64,000 bases of DNA from Candidatus Poribacteria bacterium (GCA_965218095.1 OZ244587.1:1668720-1732719); one strand, 5' to 3'; shown: positions 3,870 to 47,938, counted from the first letter of the stretch. The notes: a model not told the origin generated them from the letters alone. Translations and numbers: made by a program.

Positions 3870-4097
3870 CTTACTATTACCCATAAGTCTGCAAACCCTT
3901 GTTGTGGTATAGGGATTCTGCCCGCTGATGAATCAGCGAGCTACACAGCTGCGTCCGATGAAGAAACCGATAAACGAAGTTTATTAGTTTCTCCTGAATC
4001 GAGTTTAGAAGATCGCTCGAAAGCCCGATGAATCGGGCTTCTTTTTCTGTAACTCGGCGACTTCATCGCCGAGCGAAAAGATGTGGGTAATAGTAAG
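3870..4097 (+). repeat. MITE-like structured repeat, copy 1 (downstream of the 1210-aa gene)
   Basis: Terminal inverted repeats CTTACTATTACCCAT...ATGTGGGTAATAGTAAG. Three internal stem-loops with GATGAATC-type loops. About 95% identical to copy 2 at 7987-8206. Confidence 0.6.
4021..4047 (+). terminator. intrinsic-terminator-like hairpin plus T-tract inside MITE copy 1
   Basis: aaGCCCGATgaATCGGGCtt followed by cttttt. Confidence 0.45.
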
Positions 4098-4273
4098 CCT
4101 TATCAGGGGGAGAGGCAGAGATGCCTCGCTACAGAAACCCGGGCCGATCATACCACAGCATCATTTATCCAAATGAATCGCCCCGCGCTAGATGAATCAA
4201 GCGCCTCAAGTGAGGCGTTAGGACATCAGGGCATTCTATTGGCACTGCACGTAGCGAATATTTGAAAATTATA

Positions 4274-7200
4274 TTACTTCAAAATGACCATCCGCCTCAT
4301 CTGACGGAAAGATGGCGTAGACAATTGGTAGAAATAGAGTCCACTTGAGACCCGCTCTCCCGTTTCAGAGCGTCCATCCCAATACGCGGCTCGGCTCCGA
4401 TTCGTGTAATAGCCAGCTATCTGATGACCTAAATCCAACCGACGCACCAACGCGCCCTTTGTGTCATAAATCGTGATCTGCACATCGGCATCGTTGGCGA
4501 GATGATACGGCATCCATGTCTCCGGGTTGAATGGATTCGGGTAGTTTGGCAACAGGGCTATCTCTGTTGGTGTCAGGGATGCCAAGAGCTGTTCAAGCAC
4601 CACAATCCCCCTCACCATCGTGGCATCCTTAACCTCAAGCGACCTCGCGTCGGTCAGCCACTGTTGAACGTCTGCCGCCGTGAGCATCTCAAATGCTTGT
4701 GGATGCGCTGAAGGCGCGGATGCCGCATTCCCAAACGCGCCCGCAACCAACACCAGATCTAGGATATTCACGCCACCGTCACTATTCACATCCCCCGCAA
4801 TCGGTGGCGGCTCAGTGTCGGAGACGACCTTAAAGGTCACCGTTTGCTCAAATCCAGCGGCAGACACAGAGACGGTGTTCGTTCCCGGGTTCGGACCCAG
4901 CGTGAGCGTACTCTCTGCTCTGCCGTTTTCATCGGTCATTGTGCGTGTGGCATTGAGCGTTCCACCGCCCGTGGTCACGGTAAACGTGACCGGAACCCCC
5001 TCAAGCACTGAACCATTCTCATCCTGTACTTCAACGACAAACGGGTTCGCCGGGGCCGCACCGGACACGCCTTTCTGGTTATCGCCTGAGATTTTCAAAA
5101 GGGCGGGATGCGCTTGGTCGTCAAAGCCTACCATAACCCTTCTGCTTTGGAGGGTTGGAATGTGGGTGTGGATGGATGTGTAGCTCAGGAGGTTTCCCGT
5201 CACATCAACCGTGTCTCCACCCCCCAATCCCGTGTTTGCCACCAGGGGCGAGATGTCCGATATCGAGTTGTCCGAAAGCTCCAGCCATGTCAGATTGGTT
5301 AATCCCGACACAGGCGAGATGTCCGATATCGAGTTCCCGCCAAGCCCCAGCCATGTCAGATTGGTTAATCCCGACACAGGCAAGATGTCCGATATCGAGT
5401 TCCCGCCAAGCCCCAGCCATGTCAGATTGGTTAATCCCGACACAGGCGAGATGTCCGATATCGAGTTCCTGTCAAGAAACAGCCGTGTCAGATTGGTTAA
5501 TCCCGACACAGGCGAGATGTCCGATATCGGGTTGCCCCAAAGATACAGCTCTGTCAGATTGGTTAATCCCGACACAGGCGAGATATCCGATACTGAGTTG
5601 TTGTGAAGATTTAGATCTGTCAAATTGGTTAATCCTGCCACTGCTGAGATGTTCGAGATGTTGTTGTCCCCAAGAAACAGTCCTGTCAAGCTGGTTAAGC
5701 CGGACATCGTCGAGATGTCCGAGATGTTACTGCCCCCAAGAGACAGCGACCTTAGTTTGGTTAAACCCGTTAAAGGCGAGAAATCCGATACCGAGTTACT
5801 GTTAATCGAACGATTCTCTGCCTCCACATACTCCGCACTAAGATCCAGTGTTCTCAGGTTGGTTGCACCTTCAAGCCCGGTCAAATCGCTTATGTTGGCG
5901 TTTCTTGCGTCAAGGCGGGTCAAATTTTCTAGGTGCCCTCGGAAAATGGGAGTACTTGGTGGCAGCCCGATCGCTTCTGCAATCGCAGCGCGGAGGTTGG
6001 GGTCGGGGATGTCAATCTCAGCCACTGCCTCAAGACGAACCCCCATTAACCCAGACATATCCCACAGTTCGACCGTGCCAGCCACCGTCCCGGAGGCAAG
6101 GGTTGTATCATCGCTTGAAAATGCCACAGAAAGTACATGATCCCCATGCCCGAGAGTGACGAAATTTACTCGCGTCGTTATGTCCCACAGCTTGACCGTC
6201 CTGTCCCACGACCCGGTAGCGAGGGTACTCCCATCGCGCGAAAATGCCACAGAAGTGACCCCACCCGTATGCTCTTCAAAAGTGCCGATATTTTGCTGTG
6301 TCTCAACATCCCACAGCTTGACCGTCCTATCCCACGACCCGGTAGCGAGGAGGGTCGCATCAACAGGCGAAAATGCCACAGAAGTGACCCTACTCGTGTA
6401 ATCCTCAAAAGTGCCGATATCTCGGTGCGTCGCCACGTCCCACAGCTTGACCGTCCCATCCCGCGACCCGGTAGCGAGAATTGCCCCATCGGGCGAAAAC
6501 GACACAGAAGTGACCTCATCCGTATGTCTAAAAGTGGCGATATCTCGTTCTGTCTCTACGTCCCACAGCTTAACCGTCCCATCCCATGAGCCGGCAGCGA
6601 GGGTCCTCTTATCGGACGAAAACGTCATAGCAGATGTATATGTATGCACCTTAAGGGTCGCGATATCTTGTTGCGATACTACGTCCCACAGTTTGACTGT
6701 CCCATCCCATGAGCCGGTTGCGAGAGTCACGCCATCGGACAAAAATGCCACAGAATGGACTCCAGATGTATGCTCATCAAAGGTGGCGATATGGTGTGGC
6801 GAAATTTCCACAAGCCAAAAGGAGGCATAGCCTGCATTCCCATCCGTATCAACAACCTTGACATGAACGGTATGTACCATAGAATCAGACAGATTCGTAA
6901 AGCCCTCCGCTGTAAAAGCACCGTTATAGTCGAATTTAATGGGGGCATCTTTTTCTCCCGCTAATCCACGACACGCTATCAGTCCATCAGAACCAGACAG
7001 GAGCACTTGATGGAGCCCCTCTGAATCGCTGACTTTGAGTTGAACCGGGACGCTCTGCGAGCCTGCCGGATAAGTACGCGGCGAGGTAAGTTCAATGGTG
7101 GGTCGCTCCCCCTCTTCAGTTGGGGTATTGAGATTGAAGTAGGGATGCACGGACAAATATTCGGCATGGCACGCGGATAACTGATCCCGTCCTGGACCAC

Positions 7201-7906
7201 CATACGACATGATGTACGCACCATCGTGAAAATCGTGATTCAGTCCGAAGGCGTGTCCCAGTTCATGTGCTGCTGTTCCGAAGCTAAATTCGCCAGGAAC
7301 TAACGCATCTCCACCATTTTTCCCCCATCTGCCTCCGACACCTCCGACGTTACGTCCATCACCAAGACCAATTAGATCTGTGCTATTATCAATGACGATT
7401 AGGTAAACGTTTGCCTCAAGATTAAACGCTAGGTTTATCTCGTCGAATACAGCACCAGCGGTGTTATCAAGGTAGTGGCTATCGGGGTGTCGCCCGTCCA
7501 CGTGATGCACCATCGGCTCGCCTTGGGGGTCGGTTTCGATGCGGAAGGGGACTGCCCCGTAACCGTGTGCACCCATCTGCTCGGCAAAGAAGGTCTGGAC
7601 CTTGAGAATCTCCTCCTTCATCCGCTGAACGACGTCGGCGCGATACGGGCGGTCATTGGGTAAGAGGTAGATTATCCGTACCGTGCGTGGTTCACCGACG
7701 TTCAAATTCGCTGTAAAGGATTGGGCGTAGCGACGATTGGGATATTGGTCCGAATACCGTTTGCTCCATTGATTATCAATAACGCCGCAAAAAAGTGTCC
7801 CGTTTCCGGCAGATAGCTGGGAGGCGGCAATCGCTAGGTTGAGTGTGCCGCCGGTGAGATAGATTATTAGAGAGTATAAGGTGAAACGAAAAAATTGTGT
7901 TTTCAT
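4274..7906 (-). CDS. secreted mosaic metalloprotease: signal peptide, metzincin (reprolysin-like) domain, 7 WD40 blades, about 9 LRRs, Big_2-like Ig domain, dockerin-like module, T9SS C-terminal sorting domain
   Basis: 1210 aa. HELGHAFGLNHDF with Met-turn YIMSY near nt 7255. Seven ATGSWDGTVKLWDV repeats at about 6040-6830. LTNLTxLxLxxNSISDISPVSG repeats at about 5200-5900. An invasin-like beta domain at about 4830-5100. DVNSDGGVNILDLVLVAGAFG at about 4720-4800. C-terminus LLPNYPNPFNPETWMPYHL...YFYQLSTPSFRQMRRMVILK. Confidence 0.85.
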   Translation of the reverse strand: MKTQFFRFTLYSLIIYLTGGTLNLAIAASQLSAGNGTLFCGVIDNQWSKRYSDQYPNRRYAQSFTANLNVGEPRTVRIIYLLPNDRPYRADVVQRMKEEILKVQTFFAEQMGAHGYGAVPFRIETDPQGEPMVHHVDGRHPDSHYLDNTAGAVFDEINLAFNLEANVYLIVIDNSTDLIGLGDGRNVGGVGGRWGKNGGDALVPGEFSFGTAAHELGHAFGLNHDFHDGAYIMSYGGPGRDQLSACHAEYLSVHPYFNLNTPTEEGERPTIELTSPRTYPAGSQSVPVQLKVSDSEGLHQVLLSGSDGLIACRGLAGEKDAPIKFDYNGAFTAEGFTNLSDSMVHTVHVKVVDTDGNAGYASFWLVEISPHHIATFDEHTSGVHSVAFLSDGVTLATGSWDGTVKLWDVVSQQDIATLKVHTYTSAMTFSSDKRTLAAGSWDGTVKLWDVETERDIATFRHTDEVTSVSFSPDGAILATGSRDGTVKLWDVATHRDIGTFEDYTSRVTSVAFSPVDATLLATGSWDRTVKLWDVETQQNIGTFEEHTGGVTSVAFSRDGSTLATGSWDRTVKLWDITTRVNFVTLGHGDHVLSVAFSSDDTTLASGTVAGTVELWDMSGLMGVRLEAVAEIDIPDPNLRAAIAEAIGLPPSTPIFRGHLENLTRLDARNANISDLTGLEGATNLRTLDLSAEYVEAENRSINSNSVSDFSPLTGLTKLRSLSLGGSNISDISTMSGLTSLTGLFLGDNNISNISAVAGLTNLTDLNLHNNSVSDISPVSGLTNLTELYLWGNPISDISPVSGLTNLTRLFLDRNSISDISPVSGLTNLTWLGLGGNSISDILPVSGLTNLTWLGLGGNSISDISPVSGLTNLTWLELSDNSISDISPLVANTGLGGGDTVDVTGNLLSYTSIHTHIPTLQSRRVMVGFDDQAHPALLKISGDNQKGVSGAAPANPFVVEVQDENGSVLEGVPVTFTVTTGGGTLNATRTMTDENGRAESTLTLGPNPGTNTVSVSAAGFEQTVTFKVVSDTEPPPIAGDVNSDGGVNILDLVLVAGAFGNAASAPSAHPQAFEMLTAADVQQWLTDARSLEVKDATMVRGIVVLEQLLASLTPTEIALLPNYPNPFNPETWMPYHLANDADVQITIYDTKGALVRRLDLGHQIAGYYTNRSRAAYWDGRSETGERVSSGLYFYQLSTPSFRQMRRMVILK

Positions 7907-7986: not shown

Positions 7987-8206
7987 CTTACTATTACCCA
8001 TAAGTCTGCAAACCCTTGTGGTATAGGGATTCTGCCCGCCGATGAATCAGCGGGCTACACGGCTGCGTCCGATGAAGAAACCGATAAACGAAGTTTATTA
8101 GTTTCTCCTGAATTGAACTGAGAAGATCGCTCGAAAGCCCGATGAATCGGGCTTCTTTTTCTGTAACTCGGCGACTTCATCGCCGAGCGAAAAGATGTGG
8201 GTAATA
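7987..8206 (+). repeat. MITE-like structured repeat, copy 2 (upstream of the 1210-aa gene)
   Basis: Same orientation and architecture as copy 1. Hairpin plus T-tract at 8145-8170. A 3-nt deletion and several compensating stem substitutions relative to copy 1. Confidence 0.6.
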
Positions 8207-8254
8207 GATAGCAACTTTGAGGGGACATATAGAGGGAGACTTTTCAAAGTTAAA

Positions 8255-9709: not shown

Positions 9710-10603
9710 TTATCGTCGTCGATCCATTGCTACGATTGTCTCTTCGCCCAGGTGCTCGATGAGCCACATCTTCAGCGGCACGTCGTCGTCTGTCGGCACA
9801 TACCGTCCGTCGTTCCTGACCGCGGCGCCGAGCAACTGCCTGCGAATCGGATTGCAACGGTCATACAGGTGTTCCACGACCATGTTGTCCTTAGGCCGAA
9901 TCCAGCGGTAGCCATAGCCGTAGAACAATACTTTGCGGGTGAATGCAGAACGATTTGGGCTGCGGGAGTGCCAGAGCCGACGGTCAAAAAACACCGCCGT
10001 CCCCGGCCTCGCACACATGGGGATTGCTGCATCAGGCACACTATCGGTAGTTCCCTCGCGGGGGTTGCGGCCCACCTCTGAGAAAGTGGGTATATCATCC
10101 GAAAGGTGACTGCCGGGGATAATGTAAAAGTTGCCCCGTCCGGGCTCTGAGACGTCGGTGAGAAAGTAGCCAACTTTAAGCGACAAACGGGGACGCGGAT
10201 GCGATTCCATCATCTCAATGTTGGCTCGCCCACTATCCTGGTGCCACTCCAACCAACCTTCCTCCTGTGGTGCATTGGGCTCAGCAGGGGGCTTAATGTG
10301 CATGTGTGCGTGATACAGGTAAATGTTCCACCCTAAAATACCCCAAATTTTTGGTAAGGTGGTGGGATAGTCAAGTAGGTCTAAAAAAGCGTCGTCCTCA
10401 CCGAGAAAGTTTGAAGAGCTCCACGCCTTGCCATGTTCAGTCGGCTCCGCTTCAATCGCCTTTTTGTGAAGACTATCCACGGCGGCGGTCAAACGGTCAA
10501 TCATTTCTTCGGACAAGGCATTTTCAACGATGAGGTAGCCTTGTTCCTCGAAATGGCGGTGTTGTTCGTCCGTTAAGCAATGTGAAAGATAATCTTGAGT
10601 CAT
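9710..10603 (-). CDS. phytanoyl-CoA dioxygenase (PhyH) family Fe(II)/2-oxoglutarate oxygenase
   Basis: 297 aa. WHQDSG...PGSH...WHSRSPN facial-triad pattern. The N-terminus GYLIVENAL is typical of the family. Confidence 0.7.
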   Translation of the reverse strand: MTQDYLSHCLTDEQHRHFEEQGYLIVENALSEEMIDRLTAAVDSLHKKAIEAEPTEHGKAWSSSNFLGEDDAFLDLLDYPTTLPKIWGILGWNIYLYHAHMHIKPPAEPNAPQEEGWLEWHQDSGRANIEMMESHPRPRLSLKVGYFLTDVSEPGRGNFYIIPGSHLSDDIPTFSEVGRNPREGTTDSVPDAAIPMCARPGTAVFFDRRLWHSRSPNRSAFTRKVLFYGYGYRWIRPKDNMVVEHLYDRCNPIRRQLLGAAVRNDGRYVPTDDDVPLKMWLIEHLGEETIVAMDRRR

Positions 10604-12549: not shown

Positions 12550-13329
12550 ATGAACGAGGACGAAAAATATGTGTTCGACCTGACAGGCTATCTTATTATC
12601 AAAGATGCACTCACACCTGAAGAGGTCGCACGCTGTAACGCGGCAATTGACCAACTCAAAGAGATGGACAGGTCATTGTCAGGCGGATCGAAGGCGTTAG
12701 CGGGCACATCCCACCGGAGGGATATGGGCGGGATGTTAGCGTGGGAACGTCCGTGGTGTGAGTCGTTTCGAGAGTTGTTAGTGCACCCACGAATTAAACC
12801 CTACCTCGACGGCATCTTGGAAGAGGGCTATCGGCTAGATCATGGCCCAGGCTTGATTGCGATGGAGGACGGAACAGAAGGCGGCACATTGCACGGTGGC
12901 GGCGTCGAGCGTCCCAATTTCTCCGAAGCCTACTTCTTCAAGAACGGACGCATCTACACCGGACTCACGGTGGTAGAGTACATGCTGGCGGACGAAGGTC
13001 CCGGCGATGGCGGGCTAGTGGTCATTCCGGGGAGCCACAAGGCAAACCTGCCCTGCCCACGCAGCATGAGGTGGTATGAGAAGCATCAGGAGCATGTGGT
13101 TGAAGTCCATGCAAAAGCAGGGGACGCAGTCATTTTCACCGAGACCTTGACGCACGGAACGCTGCCGTGGAAGGGTAAGCATCAGCGTCGTGTGCTGCTT
13201 TATAAGTTCAGTCCGGGATTTCAGGCTTACAGCGGGGGCGCGCATCAGATTGCGTATCCTGATTATATTGAGGAGATGACGCCGGAGCAGCGTGCGGTGA
13301 TGGAGGCGCCACATATTCGTCGTCGATAG
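12550..13329 (+). CDS. phytanoyl-CoA dioxygenase (PhyH) family protein
   Basis: MNEDEKYVFDLTGYLIIKDALTPEEV N-terminus and VIPGSH motif. An AAGGAG RBS precedes the ATG at 12550. Confidence 0.7.
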   Translation: MNEDEKYVFDLTGYLIIKDALTPEEVARCNAAIDQLKEMDRSLSGGSKALAGTSHRRDMGGMLAWERPWCESFRELLVHPRIKPYLDGILEEGYRLDHGPGLIAMEDGTEGGTLHGGGVERPNFSEAYFFKNGRIYTGLTVVEYMLADEGPGDGGLVVIPGSHKANLPCPRSMRWYEKHQEHVVEVHAKAGDAVIFTETLTHGTLPWKGKHQRRVLLYKFSPGFQAYSGGAHQIAYPDYIEEMTPEQRAVMEAPHIRRR

Positions 13330-14533: not shown

Positions 14534-14709
14534 TCGATTACCTGACACACCCTGAGTTTGTCAGGTACAACCCGGGGTTGCCACTGTCAGCACAAGGACG
14601 TCATTTGTGTAGATGTTAAAGAAATTGTGTGTTAAACTTACTCCTATTTATGGTGATTTGTTTAATTCTGTTAAAGCGAAGGAACACTCATGATTACAAG
14701 GGGAAATCG

Positions 14710-16660
14710 ATGAATTTCCGACAGAAAATCACACTACATCTTTTGCTCTATATCGCTCTGTGCAGCGCTGCATTCGCGCAAGTCGTCGACATCCCCGCCC
14801 CCAACCTCCAAGTTGCAATCCGTCAAGAACTCCAACTACTCCCCGGCAGTAGGATTACAAAAGAAGACATGCTGTGGCTAGAAAGGCTAAACGCAGCCCG
14901 CCACGATATAATTGACCTTATGGGCTTAGAACACGCAACTAATCTGGCAAGTTTGTCCTTATGGGGAAATCAACTCGCCGAACTAACACCGATAGCCAAC
15001 CTCCGAAGATTGACATACCTTGATACGGCTGCCTGCTCCATTTCAGATATAAGCGTGGTATCAAACCTCGTTAGTTTAACCACTCTAAACGTTAGGTTTA
15101 ACCAGATTGTCGATATTAGCCCGCTCGCCAACCTGACAGACCTAGTTTCGCTGTGTTACGCCACTAGCAAATCTCACACAACTCACCGAATTGTACCTGA
15201 GCGATAATCGCATTGCAGATATTAGCCCGCCTGCAAGTTTAACAAAATTGGATTCGCTAGACATTCGACGTAACCCCGTTACTGACTACACCCCGCTTGA
15301 TGGACTCGCTTTAACCCATTTTTTATACGACGAATTTTGCGAACACCTGCCGCTTCCCGTACGCGACAGGATTCATAATAGAAACTACCCGTCCATATTC
15401 GCGAGATGGAGTGGATTAGGTTGGGTTCCTATTAGCAATCGTCCCGAACTATCAGATATGGAAAATGTAGCACGTCATGATTTATGGTTCAGCGTCAACA
15501 TGTTTGGATTAACCTTCTTCGAAACGCCTGACGGATTTAAGATGTCGGGCGAGATTGACAAGGCGATACGCCGGCGAGATGAATTTCTTGCCCTCAATCC
15601 CAATATGGTTTTTCTTGTTACGATTGCTATGAGAACGTACTCACTCAATGCTTTTCCGGAAGACTGGCCATATTGGATAAGGGACGCACAGGGGAACATC
15701 CAGCGCGAAGGATTAGTTGATTTTACGCACCCGGACATCCAGGATAGAATTGTTCAACAGGCTATAACGGTATCAAGGTGTGGCTTATATGACGGTATTA
15801 TCTTCGATTGGTGGAACGAGCATGGTGCCGTTCTTGCCGATTTTGATGGGAATTGGGAAGATAAATATCGCGGAAATGAAGCCGAACAACGCGCTCGAGA
15901 CAACATCGTACGCGGCATCCGGGCTGCAACTCGACCCGACTTTTTGATAATGGGCAACACCAATCGAACCAAAATCCCACGTACAGGGCCTTACATCAAC
16001 GGCGGCTTTATGGAAACCGTCGTACCTCATGATAGAATTGGCGCAGTCCTCGAACAACACCTGAACGAGGTTGAAGACTCGCTGCTTTGGCTAGATCAAA
16101 ATCTACGAGAACCACAAATAAACGGACTGGAAGGTTTGAGTGTTCTCACTGAGCCACCAGATAGCTAAACCAATCTTCGGTGGATGCGAGCTATCACAAC
16201 CTTGAGCCTCACGTATTCCGATGGCTATGTTCTTTTCACCGAAAGCATAAAATACACCCACTATTGGTACGACTTTTGGGACGCCGACCTCGGTCGCCCT
16301 GTCGGTCCAAAAGCCCAATTGTACGACAACTGCCCCGGTCTCTATATTCGCGAATTCACGAACGGGTGGGCGGTGTACAACCACAGCGGCAAGCCGCAGA
16401 TAATAACCTTGCCAGAAAAAGTGCAAGCTGTAGCAAGCGGTTTGGTGAACACCGAGCACGCCCTCCCTAACCTCGACGGCGAGATGTACTTTCGCATTAA
16501 GCCGAAGAATCGCGCGGATGTCAATGGCGATGGAGTGGTGAATATCCTAGACTTGACGCTGGTTGCCCAAGGCTTCGGCACAGATAAATCTGGTGTGGAC
16601 GTGAATGGGGATGGGGTCGTCAATGTGTTTGACCTTGTGTTCATAGCGAACCAATTTTGA
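14710..16660 (+). pseudogene. secreted LRR / TIM-barrel-like / dockerin protein disrupted by one frameshift (about 15143-15160) and one in-frame TAA (16166-16168)
   Basis: Signal peptide MNFRQKITLHLLLYIALCSAAFAQ with an AAGGGGA RBS. LRR units continue across the frame change (PLANLTDL / PLANLTQLTELYLSDNRIADISP). The ORF at 16184 is in frame with the previous one across a TAA. The C-terminal double dockerin is DVNGDGVVNILDL...DVNGDGVVNVFDL. Confidence 0.7.
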
Positions 16661-19557: not shown

Positions 19558-19994
19558 TCAAGGGAGCCATATAAGAGTGGAGACAAAGCTGAGAAATCCA
19601 AAATAACGGATAGCTAACTTCTCGAACCGAGAGAAGATGCGGCGATACCATTTTATCTTGTTAATGAAACATTCAACCCGATGTCTCTCTTTGTACAGAT
19701 GTTTGTCGTAATCTCTTTGATCCACACGATGACTTTTGGGCGGTATCACCGCAATCGCTCCATTCGCCTCAATAACCGCGATAAAATTGTCAGAGTCATA
19801 TCCCTTGTCTCCAATCACATACTCGCTTTTATATCCAAGTATCAACGCTTCTGCTTCTGCTATGTCGTTTCTTTGACCGGGCGTCAGATGTATTCTTAGT
19901 GGATTACCCAGGCCGTCAACGATGATGTGAATTTTTGTACTGAATCCCCCGCGAGAGCGACCTAACGCTTGGTTTTCAGTGCCACCCTTTTTTT
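19558..19994 (-). CDS. IS427-group transposase OrfB (DDE domain), reached by -1 frameshift from OrfA
   Basis: ...STKIHIIVDGLGNPLRIHLTPGQRNDI...VIGDKGYDSDNFIAVIEANGAIAVIPPKSHR... Confidence 0.75.
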
Positions 19995-20348
19995 TAAGGC
20001 ACCCGCCACACACGGGTGCGCTCGAATGATTGTACTGTCCACAATAAGCGACTCGATATCGGGGTCGGCGGCGAAGTGGGGGTGCATCTGTGTGAAGATA
20101 CCTTTGTCGCACCATCGAGCAAACCGCTTGTAGCGGGTGTTCCATTTGCCATAGGTGTCTGGTAGAAGTCTCCATTGAGCCCCGCTACGAGTCACCCACA
20201 GGACGGCTTCGACGAAGCGGCGTGTAGCAGCTTCGTCGCCAACATAGATGGTGAGACAGCTAAGAAGAAACCGGTATATCTTATTCCATTGTTCATCAGG
20301 TAAGGTTATTGGCGTCATTCTTCTATTATGCCACAACCTTATACTCAA
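19962..20348 (-). CDS. IS427-group transposase OrfA
   Basis: 128 aa, MSIRLWHNRRMTPITLPDEQWNKIYRFLL... It ends in the poly-A frameshift window. Confidence 0.8.
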   Translation of the reverse strand: MSIRLWHNRRMTPITLPDEQWNKIYRFLLSCLTIYVGDEAATRRFVEAVLWVTRSGAQWRLLPDTYGKWNTRYKRFARWCDKGIFTQMHPHFAADPDIESLIVDSTIIRAHPCVAGALKKRVALKTKR

Positions 20349-37374: not shown

Positions 37375-38486
37375 CTGAGGGGTGTGCATAGTAGTTCATT
37401 GGAAAACAGCCGCCATATGAGAGATATTGCGAGCAGGTAACTTCCATATGGCATTGGCAATCATAGCCACTTGCACTGATAACACCCCGATAGCTAAACA
37501 ACAGCGTACATTGAAAAACCCCTTGACCGGTAACTGCTTCTGTTGAGGAGTGGTGCCTATCACTTTAGCAATCAAGTCAAACAACGGTTCAACCGAACTG
37601 CGACGTTTGCTTAAACAGAGACGCTGCTTGGGTTGGTTGATAAATCGATGATACGCCTTGGCAAACCGTCCCTTTGTCCATCTAAGTGCCGGGGTAATCA
37701 AAGCGACTTGTGCCTTCGCCCAACGACGGATACGGTCTGCTTGGGTATAGGCATCATCGGCAGTGAGTGTCTGCGGTGAAAGTTGTGTCAGAATCTCAGA
37801 CGCTTTAGCATCTATCGCCCAACTTTCGGAGACCGACGCACGGTGCACAGTTATCAGTGTTGGGAACGCACCTTGTGTGCAGATAATGTGAAGTCCGTAG
37901 CCATAGACCCAGCCATGATAACCACTCTTGCTCCACGTGGCATCGGTGTCGAGGTTGCGTAGATGTTTAGGTGCTTTTCCTGCTTTGCGGTCAGTTTGAT
38001 GCCAGACGGGTCCTCGTGCCTTAAATAAACTTTTGTCGGCTACCAGATGAGCCAAGTTGAATTGTTGGGACAAGTCAGTGGCATACTGACCGATAAACAA
38101 TACAAATGCCTCTATCACTTCATATAATGCCTTATAGCGACGTGCAATCGTGGTTCGATGAGGGGGCTGTTGCCACCCCAGCATTTGTAACACTTCTGGG
38201 TGATTGATTAGCCACCGCCATTGCGTTTTGAAGCCATAGATGCCGTGAAACTGCATCAACATGAAGAAAATGATAAACGAGGTGGTTGAATATGTCAATG
38301 GTTTTGCGTGTGTGACACCTGGTTTGTCAATACGGTGTTGCATAAACTGCTCAAAGAGTTGCATAATAAGAGTGACATAATCAGCCAACATTGGTCTTTG
38401 TACCATATTGGGGCTCCTTTTGCTATGATAACAATAGGAAACCCTTTTGGCTTGATTATGTCAACTATATTTATGCACACCCCTCA
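37375..38486 (-). mobile_element. IS4/IS5-superfamily (DDE_Tnp_1) insertion sequence, 1112 bp
   Basis: 15-bp terminal inverted repeat TGAGGGGTGTGCATA / TATGCACACCCCTCA. A 7-bp direct repeat CCTAAAC at 37368-74 and 38487-93. One 336-aa transposase ORF at 37396-38406. Confidence 0.75.
37396..38406 (-). CDS. DDE transposase (IS4/IS5 superfamily)
   Basis: 336 aa occupying the body of the IS element. Confidence 0.7.
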   Translation of the reverse strand: MVQRPMLADYVTLIMQLFEQFMQHRIDKPGVTHAKPLTYSTTSFIIFFMLMQFHGIYGFKTQWRWLINHPEVLQMLGWQQPPHRTTIARRYKALYEVIEAFVLFIGQYATDLSQQFNLAHLVADKSLFKARGPVWHQTDRKAGKAPKHLRNLDTDATWSKSGYHGWVYGYGLHIICTQGAFPTLITVHRASVSESWAIDAKASEILTQLSPQTLTADDAYTQADRIRRWAKAQVALITPALRWTKGRFAKAYHRFINQPKQRLCLSKRRSSVEPLFDLIAKVIGTTPQQKQLPVKGFFNVRCCLAIGVLSVQVAMIANAIWKLPARNISHMAAVFQ

Positions 38487-38921: not shown

Positions 38922-41900
38922 TTGAATAAGCGGATTACCTCAATACCTATTGTGCTAGCACTCTATACAATCCTAATATGTATTCCATCTTCGGTATATG
39001 CCAAAAAGGGGGTAAGACAGCAGATTCAACTGAAAGCAGGCGCGGCGTTGCAGCGGATCAAATCCGATTCAGAAACCCCTGTCCGTGCACGATGGCATCA
39101 GAACCGGGGGACAGTCCGCAACCTTTACAATTTGACACTGCCTGCCCCGATAGGAACGCTGGAAACATCAGTGCGTCAATGCCTTACCGACTATTGTGAC
39201 CTTTTTGCGATGACTGATCCAAACATCGAGTTGCGTCTCACGGATATCCAAAACAGCTTAACGGGCAGACATGTTCGATTCCATCAATACTACAACGGTA
39301 TCGAAGTTTACGGTGCAGTGACCTCGGTCCACACCAACCGCTCTGGGCAGATACGAGTCATCCACAACAACTACTTCCCACAGATCAACATCAGTACAGC
39401 GGCATCGCTCTCCCCGGAACAAGCAATCAGTATCGCCATTGCCGAGTCCGGTGCATTCGATTTGCGCAAGCCGCCGCGTGTCAACTTGGTAATTTTCCCG
39501 GATCGTAATACGGGACAGATAGGCGACTATGCTAATGCGTATCGCCTCGCTCACCGCACAATCGTGCACTCCCGTCAACCACTCGCAAGTTGGGAGTATA
39601 TCATTGACACCAACACCGGCGAGCTGTTGCACCGACGGAACCTGCTCAGGTTTGCTGACGGACAAGGGCGCGTCTTTAACCCGAATCCTGTTGTCGCCCT
39701 TAAAGATTTCACGCTCATGGACCAAGATGATTCTCCTGACGCGATACCAGAAGCAGCGTATACGGATGTGATGCTACCTGAGTTGGACGGGAGTGGTTTT
39801 CTTGATGGGCCTTACGCGAGTACGAGATTGACCGAAAATCGTGCCAACGAGCCGACGCTGGGGTTCAACTATCTCCGAGATGATCCCCGATTTGAGGAGG
39901 TGATGGTCTATTATCACGTTGATGCCGTTGGGCGTTATTTGAAAGGACTCGGCTTCGATTTCGTGGACAATTGGCAGATTCCTGCGAATGTGCATTTCGG
40001 TATGACGAGGGCTGGTTTCTATAACGATAGTGAGGGATCGATTAATTTCGGAGATGCCGGTGTTGATGTTGCCGAAGATGCTGAAGTGATTATCCATGAA
40101 TATGGTCACGCGATCCTTGATCGACAGGTCCCTAACATTAACAAGGGCGAAGGTGGCGCGATACACGAAGGGTTTAGTGATTTTCTCGCAGCCAGTTTTT
40201 TCAGTGCCGTGAGCGATGGTTTTAGTGACTCGATCGTTTTTGAATGGGCTGGTTCAGGTGACCCTGAGATTTACACTCGTCCCGTAACTGGTAACAAGCG
40301 TTATCCCGAAGACATTGTGGGTGAGCCACACACCGATGGAGAGATTTGGTCTGCGGCACTATGGGAGATTTTTGAGGCGATTGGACGCGATGCGTCGATC
40401 CGCTTGATTGTCGAGAGCCATTTCTTCCTCTCACCCGACACGGAACTTGTCGATGGGGCATCAGCGATTTTTATGGCGGATCAGGAACTGAATGGTGGAG
40501 TAAATTTCGACCTAATTTTGGGAATTATGGAGAACCGTGGATTCTTTACGCTGCCCAAATTGGCATCGGATGCCTTTGAGGAGAACGATACAGCGGAGAC
40601 CGCAGCCGCGATTGAGCTCCCGTTTGTCAACGGAGAACTGTCCGTCCACACAGCGGACAATGATGATTACTATAGATTCCGTTTGGATGAGACAATGCAG
40701 GTTGGGTTGGGAATTGATTTTCAACCCATTTACGGGGAGTTGATGCTAACATTGATGGGACCTAATGGTATCGAGCTTGTTACCTTCGAGACGAAGGATG
40801 TTACATCGCTTGAATTAGTGCCGGGCGATTATGTCGTTGCAGTTTCGGGCATCAACGGTGCGACTAACGATTATAAACTAGCGCTTATCGTTGACAACCA
40901 CGGCGATACGCCTGACACAGCGACATCTGTGGCGATCGGCGACACGATAGAAAGTTTCATCGACTTCAACGGAGATACGGATTTCTTCGCGATTGAAGGT
41001 GAGAAGGGGCAGCGCATTGAAATCACTATTACGACAAAGAACTCCGACCTCGACTCTCTGCTCGTTGTCTATGGACCAGATGGTGAGCTCTTTGCTAAAA
41101 GTGATGATGTCTTGCCGACCATCGGTCCGGAGCCGATTCCCGAACTAAATCCGCGTGGGATTGATTCCCGCGTGAGTGAAAAACTACCAGCCAATGGAAC
41201 GTACCTGCTCGCTGTCAGCAACATTGCACTTCCCAATCTGAATGCCCCCTTTGGCGGTCTAAACTACTCTTACACACTGACGATCAGTGGGAAGACCGAT
41301 GACCATGCAGCGTGCGGTAGTGGCGAGGAAACGCCATTGACCTTCGATGCACCTATAACAGGTATCATTACCCTTAGCACCCTTAGCGGTGATCCTACAT
41401 CACCGGATCCTCAAGACTCGGAACCCGATCTTCATGACTCGGACGGTTTCCGCTTTGAAGCGTCAGAGGGCACTGTCATTGCCCTACACGTTGAGGTAGA
41501 AACGCCTGCACGCGAGGTAATATTTATGGTGACCCTCCTCAGTCTTTTGGATGCATCTGGAGAAACGTTGGTATCTACTCGTGGCGCTCCTAATGGCTTA
41601 GAGGTGCGGATTGATGGATTTCTCATCCCTGCCGATGGCGAGTATTGTGTTGATGTTGCCGGTTTCATAGGAGGTGCGGTTGGTTCCACTTATACCTATA
41701 CGCTGACGTTATCTGAGGGCGAACTGCCCGAAGATGATCACGAAGATCTGAAAGGGAATCCAACCCCCTTAACGGTGGGTGTTCCTGTCGAGGGAGCGAT
41801 CAGTTTTGTCGGGGATGCCGATGCGTTTCAGTTTACTGCTACAGCGGGACAAATCATTACGTTAGCGGTGGACGGGCAACCCGCCACTCCGTTCTCTCGT

Positions 41901-42962
41901 TTAGTTTTGACCCTGTATAATAGCGATTTACAGCGTTTAGCCGAGGTTCCGCTCTTTATAGAAGGTATTGATTCGATGCTAGAAGGATTTGAAATTCCTG
42001 TGGACGGAATTCACTATGCCGAGATTAGAGATATGTTCGGAGGAAGTGAAGCGAATTTTTCCTACACACTGACCCTGACAATCGAAGAGGGAGATGTTGA
42101 GCGTAAATTTCCCCCTTATGATGTCAACCAAGATGGCAAGGTGGACATTTTTGATCTCGTGCTTGTCGGTCAACATTTCGGCGAAAAATTCATTAACGCC
42201 ACGCCAACTGCAGATTTTGGACAGTTCCGTTCGGTATCGCCCGAAGGGGAGTTGCGGCTCCTGATGACCCCGAGTGTGACGGATACACGACAATTGACCG
42301 TCTCAATCCACACCACAGCGATTGCCGATCTTTACGGCTACCATTTTTCAATCCAGTACGATCCGGCGATATTAGAGTTCCTTACTGCATCACCAAGCCC
42401 GGTTTTAGCCGCTGCGCTGCCCCAAAGTTACTGGCATATCTCCCAGCAAGGGACACAACTGAAGTTCACACAGACACGTCAAGCAACGCTGAAAGGTGTG
42501 ACAGCAGAGGGTTCACTGGCTATGCTTGTTTTTCATGTCAAAAAGACGGTGCCCCCGTCGTCGCAGCCCCCCATCCGGCTCGTTGACCTGCAACTGGCGG
42601 ATTCGCTGACAAGAGCGATTCCGGTGCACGTGGTCGGTGAGCGAGTGTCAATGACAGAGCTATTCCCTGAGAAACCGATGTTGCTGCAAAACCACCCGAA
42701 CCCGTTTAACCCGGAAACATGGATTCCGTATCAACTCTCTACCGATTCAGAGGTGGTTATCTCAATTTACGATACAAACGGTGAGCGTGTCCGTCAATTT
42801 GACCTCGGCTATCAGCACGTTGGGACATACATTACTCGCGGTAGGGCGGCCTACTGGGATGGAGAAGACATGTATGGTGAGCAGGTTGCGAGCGGCTTAT
42901 ATTTTTATCAGATCCGGGCGGGTGCGTTTTCTGCGACCCGCAAAATGGTTATCGTCAAATAG
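38922..42962 (+). CDS. secreted mosaic metalloprotease: FTP/PepSY-like propeptide, M36/M4-type gluzincin domain, 4 PPC (pre-peptidase C-terminal) domains, dockerin-like module, T9SS C-terminal sorting domain
   Basis: 1346 aa. TTG start with a GGAGA RBS. HEYGHAILD plus EGFSDF at about 40097-40200. Four DxDxY/FxF PPC units (ADNDDYYRF, GDTDFFAI, HDSDGFRF, GDADAFQF). YDVNQDGKVDIFDLVLVGQHFG at about 42115. C-terminus LLQNHPNPFNPETWIPYQL...YFYQIRAGAFSATRKMVIVK. Confidence 0.85.
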   Translation: MNKRITSIPIVLALYTILICIPSSVYAKKGVRQQIQLKAGAALQRIKSDSETPVRARWHQNRGTVRNLYNLTLPAPIGTLETSVRQCLTDYCDLFAMTDPNIELRLTDIQNSLTGRHVRFHQYYNGIEVYGAVTSVHTNRSGQIRVIHNNYFPQINISTAASLSPEQAISIAIAESGAFDLRKPPRVNLVIFPDRNTGQIGDYANAYRLAHRTIVHSRQPLASWEYIIDTNTGELLHRRNLLRFADGQGRVFNPNPVVALKDFTLMDQDDSPDAIPEAAYTDVMLPELDGSGFLDGPYASTRLTENRANEPTLGFNYLRDDPRFEEVMVYYHVDAVGRYLKGLGFDFVDNWQIPANVHFGMTRAGFYNDSEGSINFGDAGVDVAEDAEVIIHEYGHAILDRQVPNINKGEGGAIHEGFSDFLAASFFSAVSDGFSDSIVFEWAGSGDPEIYTRPVTGNKRYPEDIVGEPHTDGEIWSAALWEIFEAIGRDASIRLIVESHFFLSPDTELVDGASAIFMADQELNGGVNFDLILGIMENRGFFTLPKLASDAFEENDTAETAAAIELPFVNGELSVHTADNDDYYRFRLDETMQVGLGIDFQPIYGELMLTLMGPNGIELVTFETKDVTSLELVPGDYVVAVSGINGATNDYKLALIVDNHGDTPDTATSVAIGDTIESFIDFNGDTDFFAIEGEKGQRIEITITTKNSDLDSLLVVYGPDGELFAKSDDVLPTIGPEPIPELNPRGIDSRVSEKLPANGTYLLAVSNIALPNLNAPFGGLNYSYTLTISGKTDDHAACGSGEETPLTFDAPITGIITLSTLSGDPTSPDPQDSEPDLHDSDGFRFEASEGTVIALHVEVETPAREVIFMVTLLSLLDASGETLVSTRGAPNGLEVRIDGFLIPADGEYCVDVAGFIGGAVGSTYTYTLTLSEGELPEDDHEDLKGNPTPLTVGVPVEGAISFVGDADAFQFTATAGQIITLAVDGQPATPFSRLVLTLYNSDLQRLAEVPLFIEGIDSMLEGFEIPVDGIHYAEIRDMFGGSEANFSYTLTLTIEEGDVERKFPPYDVNQDGKVDIFDLVLVGQHFGEKFINATPTADFGQFRSVSPEGELRLLMTPSVTDTRQLTVSIHTTAIADLYGYHFSIQYDPAILEFLTASPSPVLAAALPQSYWHISQQGTQLKFTQTRQATLKGVTAEGSLAMLVFHVKKTVPPSSQPPIRLVDLQLADSLTRAIPVHVVGERVSMTELFPEKPMLLQNHPNPFNPETWIPYQLSTDSEVVISIYDTNGERVRQFDLGYQHVGTYITRGRAAYWDGEDMYGEQVASGLYFYQIRAGAFSATRKMVIVK

Positions 42963-47159: not shown

Positions 47160-47554
47160 GATGAATCCTTTCGATATGTGAGCGGTGCATTTGGGTTTAC
47201 ACTTAGAATACATCATTAGAAGCGGAATGTCAATAGATTAAAGTGAAAACACCGGCGCATTGTGCAAAGCATCGGTTTCAGAAACGGCGACATTGCATTA
47301 TTGCCCACCTTTCCAAAAGTTCATCAAACTTGTTGATTAAAGAAATCTGCTAGATTACAATTGGCCAAAACGAGTTGATTCAAACAGAGCAAAGGTTAAA
47401 AATCAAATTGGAATTATATAATTCCGAAACCGCGGATGATTCCCAGGTCCGCCGGGGATTAGTATCAAGTATAAAGTGGGTTGTATTACGTTGAACTACG
47501 AATCAACCCAAAATGCTTATCCCTGAGTCAATCGGGGCAAATGAGAATCAATCG

Positions 47555-47938
47555 ATGAAAACCGAAGCACTTCGTTTGACTCTTTTCGTGTGGATTTGCC
47601 TCTGCTTCTCCACGCTCAACCGGGTTTCTGTTTCCCAAAATTATCAGGATTATCAGACGTGGAATTTACCCGACGATGCGATTGCCCGCTTGGGAAAAGA
47701 GGACATTAGTCAAGGCGACAGAGTGGTCGCCTTTTCGCCCGATGGGAGACGCCTCGGTGTAGCAAGTACCATTGGCGTCTGGCTTTATAACGTGAAGACG
47801 ACTCGTGAAGTCGCGCTCCCCACCGGGCATTCGGGTTGGATGCACGCTGTGGCATTCTCGCCCGATGGCACAAAACTCGCTTCGGGGTCATTCGAGGGGA
47901 CGGTTCTGGTATGGAATCTGGAACCGGCTGATCACTGA
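47555..47938 (+). CDS. short secreted WD40-repeat protein (2 blades only; possible fragment)
   Basis: Signal peptide, then VAFSPDGRRLGVAS...VAFSPDGTKLASGSFEGTVLVWNL. Confidence 0.4.
   Translation: MKTEALRLTLFVWICLCFSTLNRVSVSQNYQDYQTWNLPDDAIARLGKEDISQGDRVVAFSPDGRRLGVASTIGVWLYNVKTTREVALPTGHSGWMHAVAFSPDGTKLASGSFEGTVLVWNLEPADH

Follow-up and report, generated by a model that had tools for sequence, protein, structure and literature searches.

A probable exported O-glycopeptidase-type metzincin with WD40 and leucine-rich repeat extensions in a Candidatus Poribacteria bacterium

The 64,000-nucleotide stretch of Candidatus Poribacteria bacterium DNA analysed here (GCA_965218095.1 OZ244587.1:1668720-1732719; hereafter, the window) carries at 4274..7906, on the minus strand, a real and intact open reading frame (ORF) for a protein of 1210 aa, exactly the position, strand and length given in a preliminary description of this DNA. 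Taking the data as a whole, we think it probable that the product of the gene is a modular zinc endopeptidase exported by a presumed poribacterial sponge symbiont, of the O-glycopeptidase type and acting at the cell surface together with binding repeats. By sequence profile and structural model, the protease is a member of the OgpA/Amuc_1438 O-glycopeptidase family, not a reprolysin. As read from its sequence, the protein also bears out the secreted-type, multidomain character that the preliminary description gave it: a signal peptide and an intact metzincin are followed by WD40 and leucine-rich repeat (LRR) scaffolds, an Ig-like domain, a dockerin-derived segment and a C-terminal domain (CTD) resembling the type-A sorting domain of type IX secretion systems (T9SS). 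The modules are given below from the N-terminus onwards, with the evidence for each; AF2 denotes AlphaFold2 models, and pLDDT and pTM their predicted local distance difference test and template modelling scores.

7826..7906, minus strand: Sec-type signal peptide, aa 1-27 (MKTQFFRFTLYSLIIYLTGGTLNLAIA, then AS); basic n-region, hydrophobic core and AIA motif read from the sequence
7697..7825, minus strand: N-terminal segment, aa 28-70, with an FCGVxD motif (Cys40); alignment, pLDDT <50
7106..7696, minus strand: metzincin catalytic domain, aa 71-267; zinc ligands H214/H218/H224, catalytic E215, D225 and Met-turn M233
6797..7105, minus strand: beta-sandwich, aa 268-370, completing the O-glycopeptidase-type two-domain unit; AF2 model, Foldseek
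6056..6796, minus strand: six WD40 repeats, aa 371-617; Pfam WD40, count of LWD-ending units, AF2
5192..6019, minus strand: LRR solenoid, aa 630-905, with N-cap IPDPNLRAAI, ten 22-residue units and C-cap; Pfam, unit count, AF2
4817..5104, minus strand: Big_1 (invasin/intimin-type) Ig-like domain, about aa 935-1030; Pfam, AF2 beta strands
4727..4798, minus strand: dockerin remnant, aa 1037-1060, with one Ca-binding loop, DVNSDGGVNILD; Dockerin_1, alignment
4553..4726, minus strand: conserved helical linker, aa 1061-1118; alignment of 22 relatives, AF2 helices of low pLDDT
4277..4552, minus strand: CTD, aa 1119-1210 (NYPNPFNPETW...RMVILK), T9SS type-A/FlgD-Ig-like; NCBIfam, Pfam

Both sequence hallmarks of metzincin clan MA(M) are found in the protease unit: the zinc motif HELGHAFGLNHD at aa 214-225 (HExxHxxGxxH) and the Met-turn YIMSY at aa 231-235. 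In an alignment with 39 short members of the family, all three zinc ligands, the Gly of the motif and Met-Ser-Tyr in the Met-turn proved invariant, and the catalytic Glu and the Asp that follows the third His were conserved in at least 90% of sequences; among 22 full-length relatives the His, Glu and Gly residues of the zinc motif are all invariant, and the Met-turn is invariant or nearly so. The metzincin fold is predicted as well. An AF2 model of aa 28-372 (pLDDT 85.8, pTM 0.83; full-length model, mean pLDDT 72, pTM 0.42) shows an alpha/beta catalytic domain and then a beta-sandwich. The catalytic domain further has the lowest ratio of nonsynonymous to synonymous substitution (dN/dS) in the gene, 0.29 against the ortholog in a related locus, L001, where the gene is 89% identical overall in nucleotides; this comparison, which like all our dN/dS values is pairwise and a rough estimate over a short segment, shows the domain to be under purifying selection.

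Foldseek searches of the Protein Data Bank (PDB) with the model matched Amuc_1438 and OgpA over both domains (E about 1e-16, TM 0.55-0.60), whereas fragilysin, snake-venom and ADAM proteases were reached only at E about 1e-4. Likewise, a family profile run against PDB sequences found Amuc_1438 at E=4e-14 (profile positions 48-225) and OgpA at E=4.4e-7, while chains of ADAM, matrix metalloproteinase (MMP) and adamalysin proteases matched at E about 0.01 and over the zinc motif only. Because the OgpA/Amuc_1438 matches are so much stronger than those to ADAM and MMP proteases in both searches, we assign the protein to the former family. The preliminary description had called the domain reprolysin-like; its zinc motif, Met-turn and metzincin nature stand, and the reprolysin label falls. 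Over the N-terminal 370 aa, no Pfam match (Reprolysin_5/3/4/2, Peptidase_M10, Astacin, PF12044) exceeded its threshold, and almost all of them were limited to 15-46 residues surrounding HELGHAFGLNHD (about 20-35 for Reprolysin and Peptidase_M10). Reprolysin_5, Reprolysin_4 and Reprolysin_2 scored 25.8, 21.1 and 16.1 against gathering cut-offs of 27, 22 and 27; Reprolysin_3 equalled its cut-off of 22.4, yet over just 23 residues at the zinc site. For PF12044, the strongest stretch (aa 93-134) is upstream of the zinc motif, and the same partial PF12044 match is reported in the Amuc_1438 paper.

OgpA and Amuc_1438 are O-glycan-dependent metzincins, unclassified in MEROPS, that cleave directly N-terminal to O-glycosylated Ser/Thr and have been put forward as the founding members of a new and large family (PMC7518263, PMC9513282). 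The Akkermansia muciniphila enzymes Amuc_1438 (8df2/8dek) and OgpA/Amuc_1119 (6z2d/6z2o/6z2p) share with the window protein the HExxHxxGxxH motif, the Met-turn and the succession of catalytic domain and beta-sandwich; they too are secreted and have extra binding modules, such as the CBM51-like module of Amuc_1438. Unlike them, the window protein has WD40, LRR, Big_1 and dockerin modules in place of a carbohydrate-binding module, together with a T9SS-like CTD, and whereas they come from gut Verrucomicrobia, the family described here belongs to marine lineages represented by metagenome-assembled genomes (MAGs). The M12B adamalysin/reprolysin and M10 matrixin proteases differ in turn by their disintegrin or hemopexin modules, which are lacking here, and the fold of the window protein is much nearer to OgpA/Amuc_1438.

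The predicted signal peptide recurs at the N-terminus of the relatives in the family alignment. Between it and the catalytic domain lies a segment that is possibly a pro-segment (aa 28-70). Its FCGVxD motif (aa 40-45, window 7772-7789) stands upstream of the catalytic domain and is predicted to be disordered; C13, G14 and V15 (mature numbering) are nearly invariant in the 22 full-length relatives. We liken the motif to the PRCGVPD cysteine switch of MMP pro-domains, and from its sequence it may confer zymogen latency.

The protease unit is extended by two repeat arrays. The Pfam WD40 family PF00400 scored 201.8 bits (cut-off 27) over six stretches, an in-register count gave six units ending in LWD, and AF2 placed 24 strands here at pLDDT 75-90; Tandem Repeats Finder (TRF) recovered a period of 123-129 bp. 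The preliminary description was right about WD40 repeats and one too high in seeing a seven-bladed propeller: it is the L001 ortholog that has seven, through one additional unit of 39 aa, as does the consensus of the relatives. For the LRR array, LRR_4 scored 130.9 bits in the whole protein and 144.8 with the segment isolated, LRR_8 85-97.2 and LRR_EndoS 42.2, and the model shows 11 concave-face strands at pLDDT up to 96. TRF found a 66-bp unit repeated 5.3 times at 90% identity, five units being 90% identical in DNA. About nine internalin-type LRRs had been proposed; 22-residue LRRs are indeed present, at a count of about ten plus a cap, one (22 aa) more than in L001. The internalin_A model reached 184 bits against a cut-off of 1600, and other internalin models of NCBIfam also fell far under theirs. 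Repeat numbers range across the family from 3 to 24 for WD40 and from 0 to 21 for LRR.

Next to the LRR array, the Ig-like module foreseen in the preliminary description is present as a Big_1 domain (47.9 bits, cut-off 34.9; match aa 944-1026; weak intimin matches in NCBIfam) and not as the Big_2 domain named there, none being detected in the protein by Pfam; the second beta-sandwich (aa 268-370) belongs to the protease unit. The dockerin segment that follows had been taken for a cohesin-docking module. It is dockerin-derived, and only half is retained: Dockerin_1 scored 22.1, below the Pfam cut-off of 22.9, and a single Ca-binding loop is left. In contrast, the L001 ortholog and 21/21 aligned full-length relatives have two loops (DVNxDGxVNxLDL ... 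DxNGDGVVxILDL), and the L001 dockerin matches the solved cellulosomal dockerin 2y3n_B at E=8e-9. An exact deletion of 29 aa between duplicated VNILDLVLVA segments has left the window protein with one hybrid loop; because an allele from another assembly (P0122, described below) has the same deletion, this is not the error of a single assembly. The two-repeat dockerin of the L001 ortholog and the relatives is shared with the cellulosomal type-I dockerin-cohesin system, as is a cohesin-like domain encoded elsewhere in the window (g33, described below), whereas the window copy has only the one loop. That system serves polysaccharide degradation in Firmicutes, while the predicted bearers here are proteases and adhesins of a Gram-negative symbiont. 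The helical linker between dockerin remnant and CTD (aa 1061-1118) gave no family match in Pfam apart from DUF7936 at E=0.048; W1056, L1057, L1080, L1081 and other residues (mature numbering) are invariant in 22 relatives.

The CTD passes both TIGR04183 (27.3, cut-off 23; aa 1122-1208 of 1210; NCBIfam) and FlgD_ig (37.9, cut-off 27; Pfam). Its motif always lies 89 aa from the end in relatives, and CTD residues are invariant in the 22 relatives. The 276 nt of the CTD (window 4277-4552) are 100% identical to L001:13526-13801, compared with 77-95% nucleotide identity for the other domains, which suggests, as far as sequence can tell, recent gene conversion or recombination at the 3' end. The CTD is also 55% identical to the tail of a second large exported-type protease of the window, the M36 fungalysin-like product of g33 (39210-42962, plus strand, 1250 aa). 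This protein comprises a fungalysin/thermolysin propeptide, an M36-like catalytic domain, PPC, a one-loop dockerin-like segment, a cohesin (Pfam 24.9, cut-off 24.1; PDB matches to cohesins only, best E=0.0035) and the CTD, and on these domain matches it is a possible cohesin partner for the dockerin-bearing family members.

The same CTD motif ends 140 ORFs in 1.73 Mb of related loci. Among 45 of the 140 that were sampled from those without protease, WD40 and LRR signatures, domain searches found dockerin (21), FG-GAP (12) and WD40 (10), as well as cadherin and Big_12. Because dockerin and CTD occur together so commonly in this sample, they form a general C-terminal cassette of surface-type proteins, whose composition fits a sorting or anchoring role. 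In seven of the loci (L049, L053, L055, L057, L058, L059 and L064), co-directional tandem arrays of 4-6 paralogs lie upstream of position 10001, each paralog of about 520-545 aa and all ending in the same CTD.

Put together, these modules suggest the following course of events. The signal peptide would direct passage over the inner membrane, and the CTD, by analogy, passage across the outer membrane or anchoring on it by a T9SS-like route. At the cell surface, the WD40 propeller and LRR solenoid would serve as target-binding modules, much as carbohydrate-binding modules do in glycosidases, and keep host-matrix or particulate glycoproteins beside the protease. The latter would most likely share the cleavage site of its characterised relatives, beside O-glycosylated Ser/Thr. 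Those family members whose dockerin is complete could, in addition, be tethered to surface proteins with a cohesin, the M36 protease at 39210-42962 being one example.

Several observations weigh against this scheme. Identity to the characterised OgpA and Amuc_1438 is only about 20%. Glycan is bound by aromatic residues in OgpA (Y116, F166, W199, Y236) and Amuc_1438 (Y171, Y217) (PMC7518263, PMC9513282), and the position of OgpA W199 and Amuc_1438 Y217, six residues before the first His, is Ser208 in the hidden Markov model (HMM) alignment, with a conserved Phe on either side: Phe207, nearly invariant, and Phe209. Six WD40 repeats need not form a closed propeller, and to our knowledge the WD40 and LRR modules have no known binding partner. 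As to export, the CTD scored just below the cut-off of Pfam Por_Secre_tail PF18962 (25.7 against 27), T9SS core genes were absent among the ~40 window ORFs scanned (four batches, Pfam/NCBIfam), no Por secretion structural genes were found in poribacterial single-amplified genomes (SAGs; Kamke et al., 2014, PMC3909097), and NCBI taxonomy places Poribacteria outside the Fibrobacteres-Chlorobi-Bacteroidetes (FCB) group, to whose phyla documented T9SS are limited (PMC11285876).

The Ser aligned with the pocket aromatic bears on a possible, though not a probable, alternative: a broad-specificity metzincin for matrix breakdown or nutrient scavenging that acts independently of glycans and in which WD40, LRR and Big_1 mainly keep the protease at a distance from the surface, as a rigid stalk or an adhesin. 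The free variation of the WD40 and LRR numbers is typical of spacers and adhesins and would agree with this, and the neighbouring M36 protease carries quite different passenger domains on the same tail. The beta-sandwich, which in OgpA is one wall of the substrate groove (PMC7518263), is nevertheless retained, and enzymes that degrade glycans are enriched in Poribacteria (PMC8163846), with a GH127 gene adjoining the protease gene. We continue to favour an O-glycopeptidase with target-binding repeats.

Its export tag deserves separate mention, since the preliminary description spoke of a type-A T9SS cargo. The tag is borne out by the TIGR04183 score and the predicted signal peptide; the machinery is not, Poribacteria lying outside FCB and Por genes being missing from both the SAGs and the scanned window ORFs. 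Because Kamke et al. found no T9SS structural genes in Poribacteria, we regard the cargo claim as only partly supported. With T9SS cargo proteases of Bacteroidota (gingipain RgpB; the Tannerella KLIKK proteases, including mirolysin and mirolase) the window protein shares a signal peptide, a protease, one or more Ig-like domains and a cleavable-type C-terminal beta-sandwich with a basic end, and it passes the type-A CTD model; its organism, unlike theirs, is outside the FCB group and has no known T9SS genes. We know of no WD40, LRR or dockerin passengers in Bacteroidota T9SS cargo.

Repeat divergence has a further bearing. The dN/dS of the WD40 region, 0.79 against L001, exceeds that of the catalytic domain, and repeats turn over fast between close alleles. 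This could point to a host-manipulating effector whose WD40 and LRR arrays mimic eukaryotic scaffolds in or on sponge cells, for instance to block phagocytosis, while the protease cuts one particular host protein involved in signalling or recognition. According to work cited in PMC8163846 and PMC3909097, phagocytosis can be modulated by repeat proteins of this eukaryote-like kind from sponge symbionts. The family moreover occurs in three unrelated phyla, and several of the MAGs look sponge-derived. We nonetheless consider such an effector quite unlikely: the gene has no injection system associated with it, there is no known host target, and its CTD and dockerin suggest that the protein stays on the bacterial surface; the dN/dS estimates, too, are pairwise and cover short segments. 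Both the stalk and the effector alternative keep the anatomy described above and so differ from the surface O-glycopeptidase that we favour only in the target.

Neither base composition nor independent assemblies gave reason to doubt the ORF itself. A chimeric assembly, a possibility raised in the preliminary description, was looked for and dropped: GC content and skew show no break anywhere along 4274..7906, a protein identical to that of the window is present in public data on a contig of 6.35 Mb (P0121), and P0122 comes from an independent assembly. This last allele is 99-99.9% identical and differs by one substitution and by the loss of exactly four LRR units, corresponding to aa 773-860 (window 5327-5590); the loss is either strain-level copy-number variation or a short-read collapse of the 90%-identical 66-bp repeats. 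A search with the full-length protein yielded more than 100 intact relatives of 1150-2100 aa with the same order of modules.

Gene callers, by contrast, split the orthologous region in two loci, into genes of 617 aa (protease and WD40) and 622 aa (LRR, Big_1 and CTD) in the syntenic region of L001 and of 620 and 1371 aa in L002. The neighbours in L001 are those of the window, a gene for a 398-aa hypothetical protein upstream and GH127 downstream. The split annotation, like the 90% DNA identity of the internal repeats, which makes them prone to mis-assembly, could suggest that the long ORF is an artefact, either chimeric or a fusion of two adjacent genes. At the DNA level, however, the WD40-to-LRR junction is kept in both loci. 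The 78-nt 'spacer' between the called genes of L001 is in frame and homologous to the window, with one TGG-to-TGA change at a Trp codon, and in L002 an otherwise continuous homologous frame contains a 1-nt insertion one blade upstream. Since the homologous frame is broken only by a single TGA or a 1-nt insertion, we take the long frame to be ancestral and the window copy to be the intact one, and we dropped the reading of the ORF as a two-gene fusion. Given also the intact relatives, the matching proteins from independent assemblies and the unbroken composition, an artefact is extremely improbable.

The disruptions in L001 and L002 may mark pseudogenes, result from errors in long reads (the label of the L001 contig reads 13x) or, possibly, be sites of read-through. 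Both lie within the WD40 region, at L001:11852-11854 (TGA) and near 11800 in L002. Many short family members in the database also finish in out-of-frame tails.

The catalytic-domain profile, run against 1.84 billion cluster representatives, retrieved 1,013 clusters (50% identity) at E<=1e-30, a number that rose to 2,641 at E<=1e-3. Relatives were encoded in 245 stretches of the GTDB species collection, and 76 loci were kept; most of these belong to MAGs with Candidatus Poribacteria in the title and the others to Candidatus Latescibacterota and Gemmatimonadota, some genomes giving several loci. Isolate names such as SB06xx, RHO2 and IRC4 resemble published sponge MAG sets, so that several loci are presumably sponge-derived. 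Poribacterial members, which include the best relatives of the window protein, usually have WD40 and/or LRR repeats and the CTD motif; Latescibacterota members (L008-L014, L020, L025) often have 9-24 WD40 repeats, no LRR and no NYPNPFNP motif. The preliminary description had considered the architecture unusual and undescribed. This does not hold: by motif counts, the combination of protease, WD40, LRR and CTD occurs in at least 77 of the 120 best matches, the family runs to the 1,013 clusters just given, and WD40 with TIGR04183 was published in 2014 (PMC3909097).

Kamke et al. (2014; PLoS One 9:e87353, PMC3909097) reported that poribacterial eukaryote-like proteins, 'especially WD40 repeats', carry TIGR04183 and that the pathway for the tagged proteins "remains to be revealed". 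Their proteins share with ours the phylum, WD40 and LRR repeats, signal peptides, the Por-secretion CTD and the question of the export machinery. In that paper, however, the word 'peptidase' has 0 occurrences, whereas here the repeats are C-terminal extensions of an O-glycopeptidase-type metzincin. Known already, then, are the protein itself, unnamed in public databases, and the pairing of WD40 with TIGR04183 in Poribacteria; what is apparently new is the fusion, in many WD40/LRR proteins of symbionts, to an exported protease of the O-glycopeptidase type. The searchable literature held no report of repeat arrays fused to a metzincin of this family or of a three-phylum family of ~1,000 clusters, and nothing specific on Poribacteria in connection with type IX secretion, cohesin/dockerin or metzincin/reprolysin/metallopeptidase.

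No genomic signature of sponge symbionts is better known than their eukaryote-like repeat proteins (WD40, LRR, ankyrin and tetratricopeptide repeat, TPR), but the way in which these interact with the host "remains largely unknown", and most of the lineages have no classical secretion systems (PMC8163846). Our data indicate that a large share of the poribacterial WD40/LRR arrays are C-terminal extensions of a Sec-exported-type protease and not free-standing effectors, so that the gene may help to explain both the exit route and the role of these proteins, and it offers a defined cargo for tracing the export machinery. The recently founded OgpA/Amuc_1438 peptidase family is at the same time extended to marine symbionts by about 1,000 new clusters. 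The surface O-glycopeptidase model predicts a location at the cell surface, O-glycan-dependent cleavage, choice of target by the repeats and cohesin/dockerin assembly. A bolder proposal, which we regard as doubtful, is that Poribacteria export hundreds of eukaryote-like repeat proteins by an unrecognised T9SS-like or analogous pathway reading the NYPNPFNP-type CTD, that cohesin-dockerin pairs build a proteolytic 'cellulosome-like' complex, and that WD40 and LRR arrays select O-glycosylated proteins of the sponge matrix for OgpA-type cleavage. If true, it would answer two questions at once about the eukaryote-like proteins in sponge symbionts, namely by which route they are exported and what function they have.

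The protease gene is bracketed by two direct copies of a short element, which are 95-97% identical to each other.

3870..4098, strand not assigned: copy of an element like a miniature inverted-repeat transposable element (MITE), ~230 nt, downstream of the gene; direct repeats, alignment, 14-bp terminal inverted repeats
7987..8212, strand not assigned: copy of the MITE-like element, upstream of the gene; direct repeats, alignment

The element is bounded by perfect terminal inverted repeats of 14 bp (CTTACTATTACCCA / TGGGTAATAGTAAG), and within it are three hairpins with the pattern xxxGA-TGAA-TCxxx. It was absent from the other 76 loci and from the rest of the window, and Rfam gave no gathering-score match anywhere in the window and none of significance for the element; the same hairpin is found on both flanks of the ortholog in L001. 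Judged by its repeats and hairpins, the element looks MITE-like or of the repetitive extragenic palindromic (REP) type, and the gene could be a mobile or recombining cassette.

Elsewhere in the window, small ORFs at 14650-15207, 15458-16168, 16184-16660 and 47513-47938 encode LRRs on their own (185 aa), a dockerin of 158 aa (38.7 bits) and a WD40 fragment of 141 aa. L001 retains the ORFs for the LRRs and the dockerin, with a weak-LRR ORF (325 aa) between them. Such small ORFs may be remnants of degraded repeat-protein genes or stand-alone modules. The window also contains several genes of PhyH, a domain family tabulated specifically for Poribacteria (Kamke et al., PMC3909097), with paralogs at 9710-10603 and 12550-13329; these genes and the poribacterial best relatives of the protease make a poribacterial origin of the window very probable. 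A fragment of an IS5-family transposase (146.5 bits) and an ORF for a DDE transposase are found at 19558-20175 and 37396-38406.

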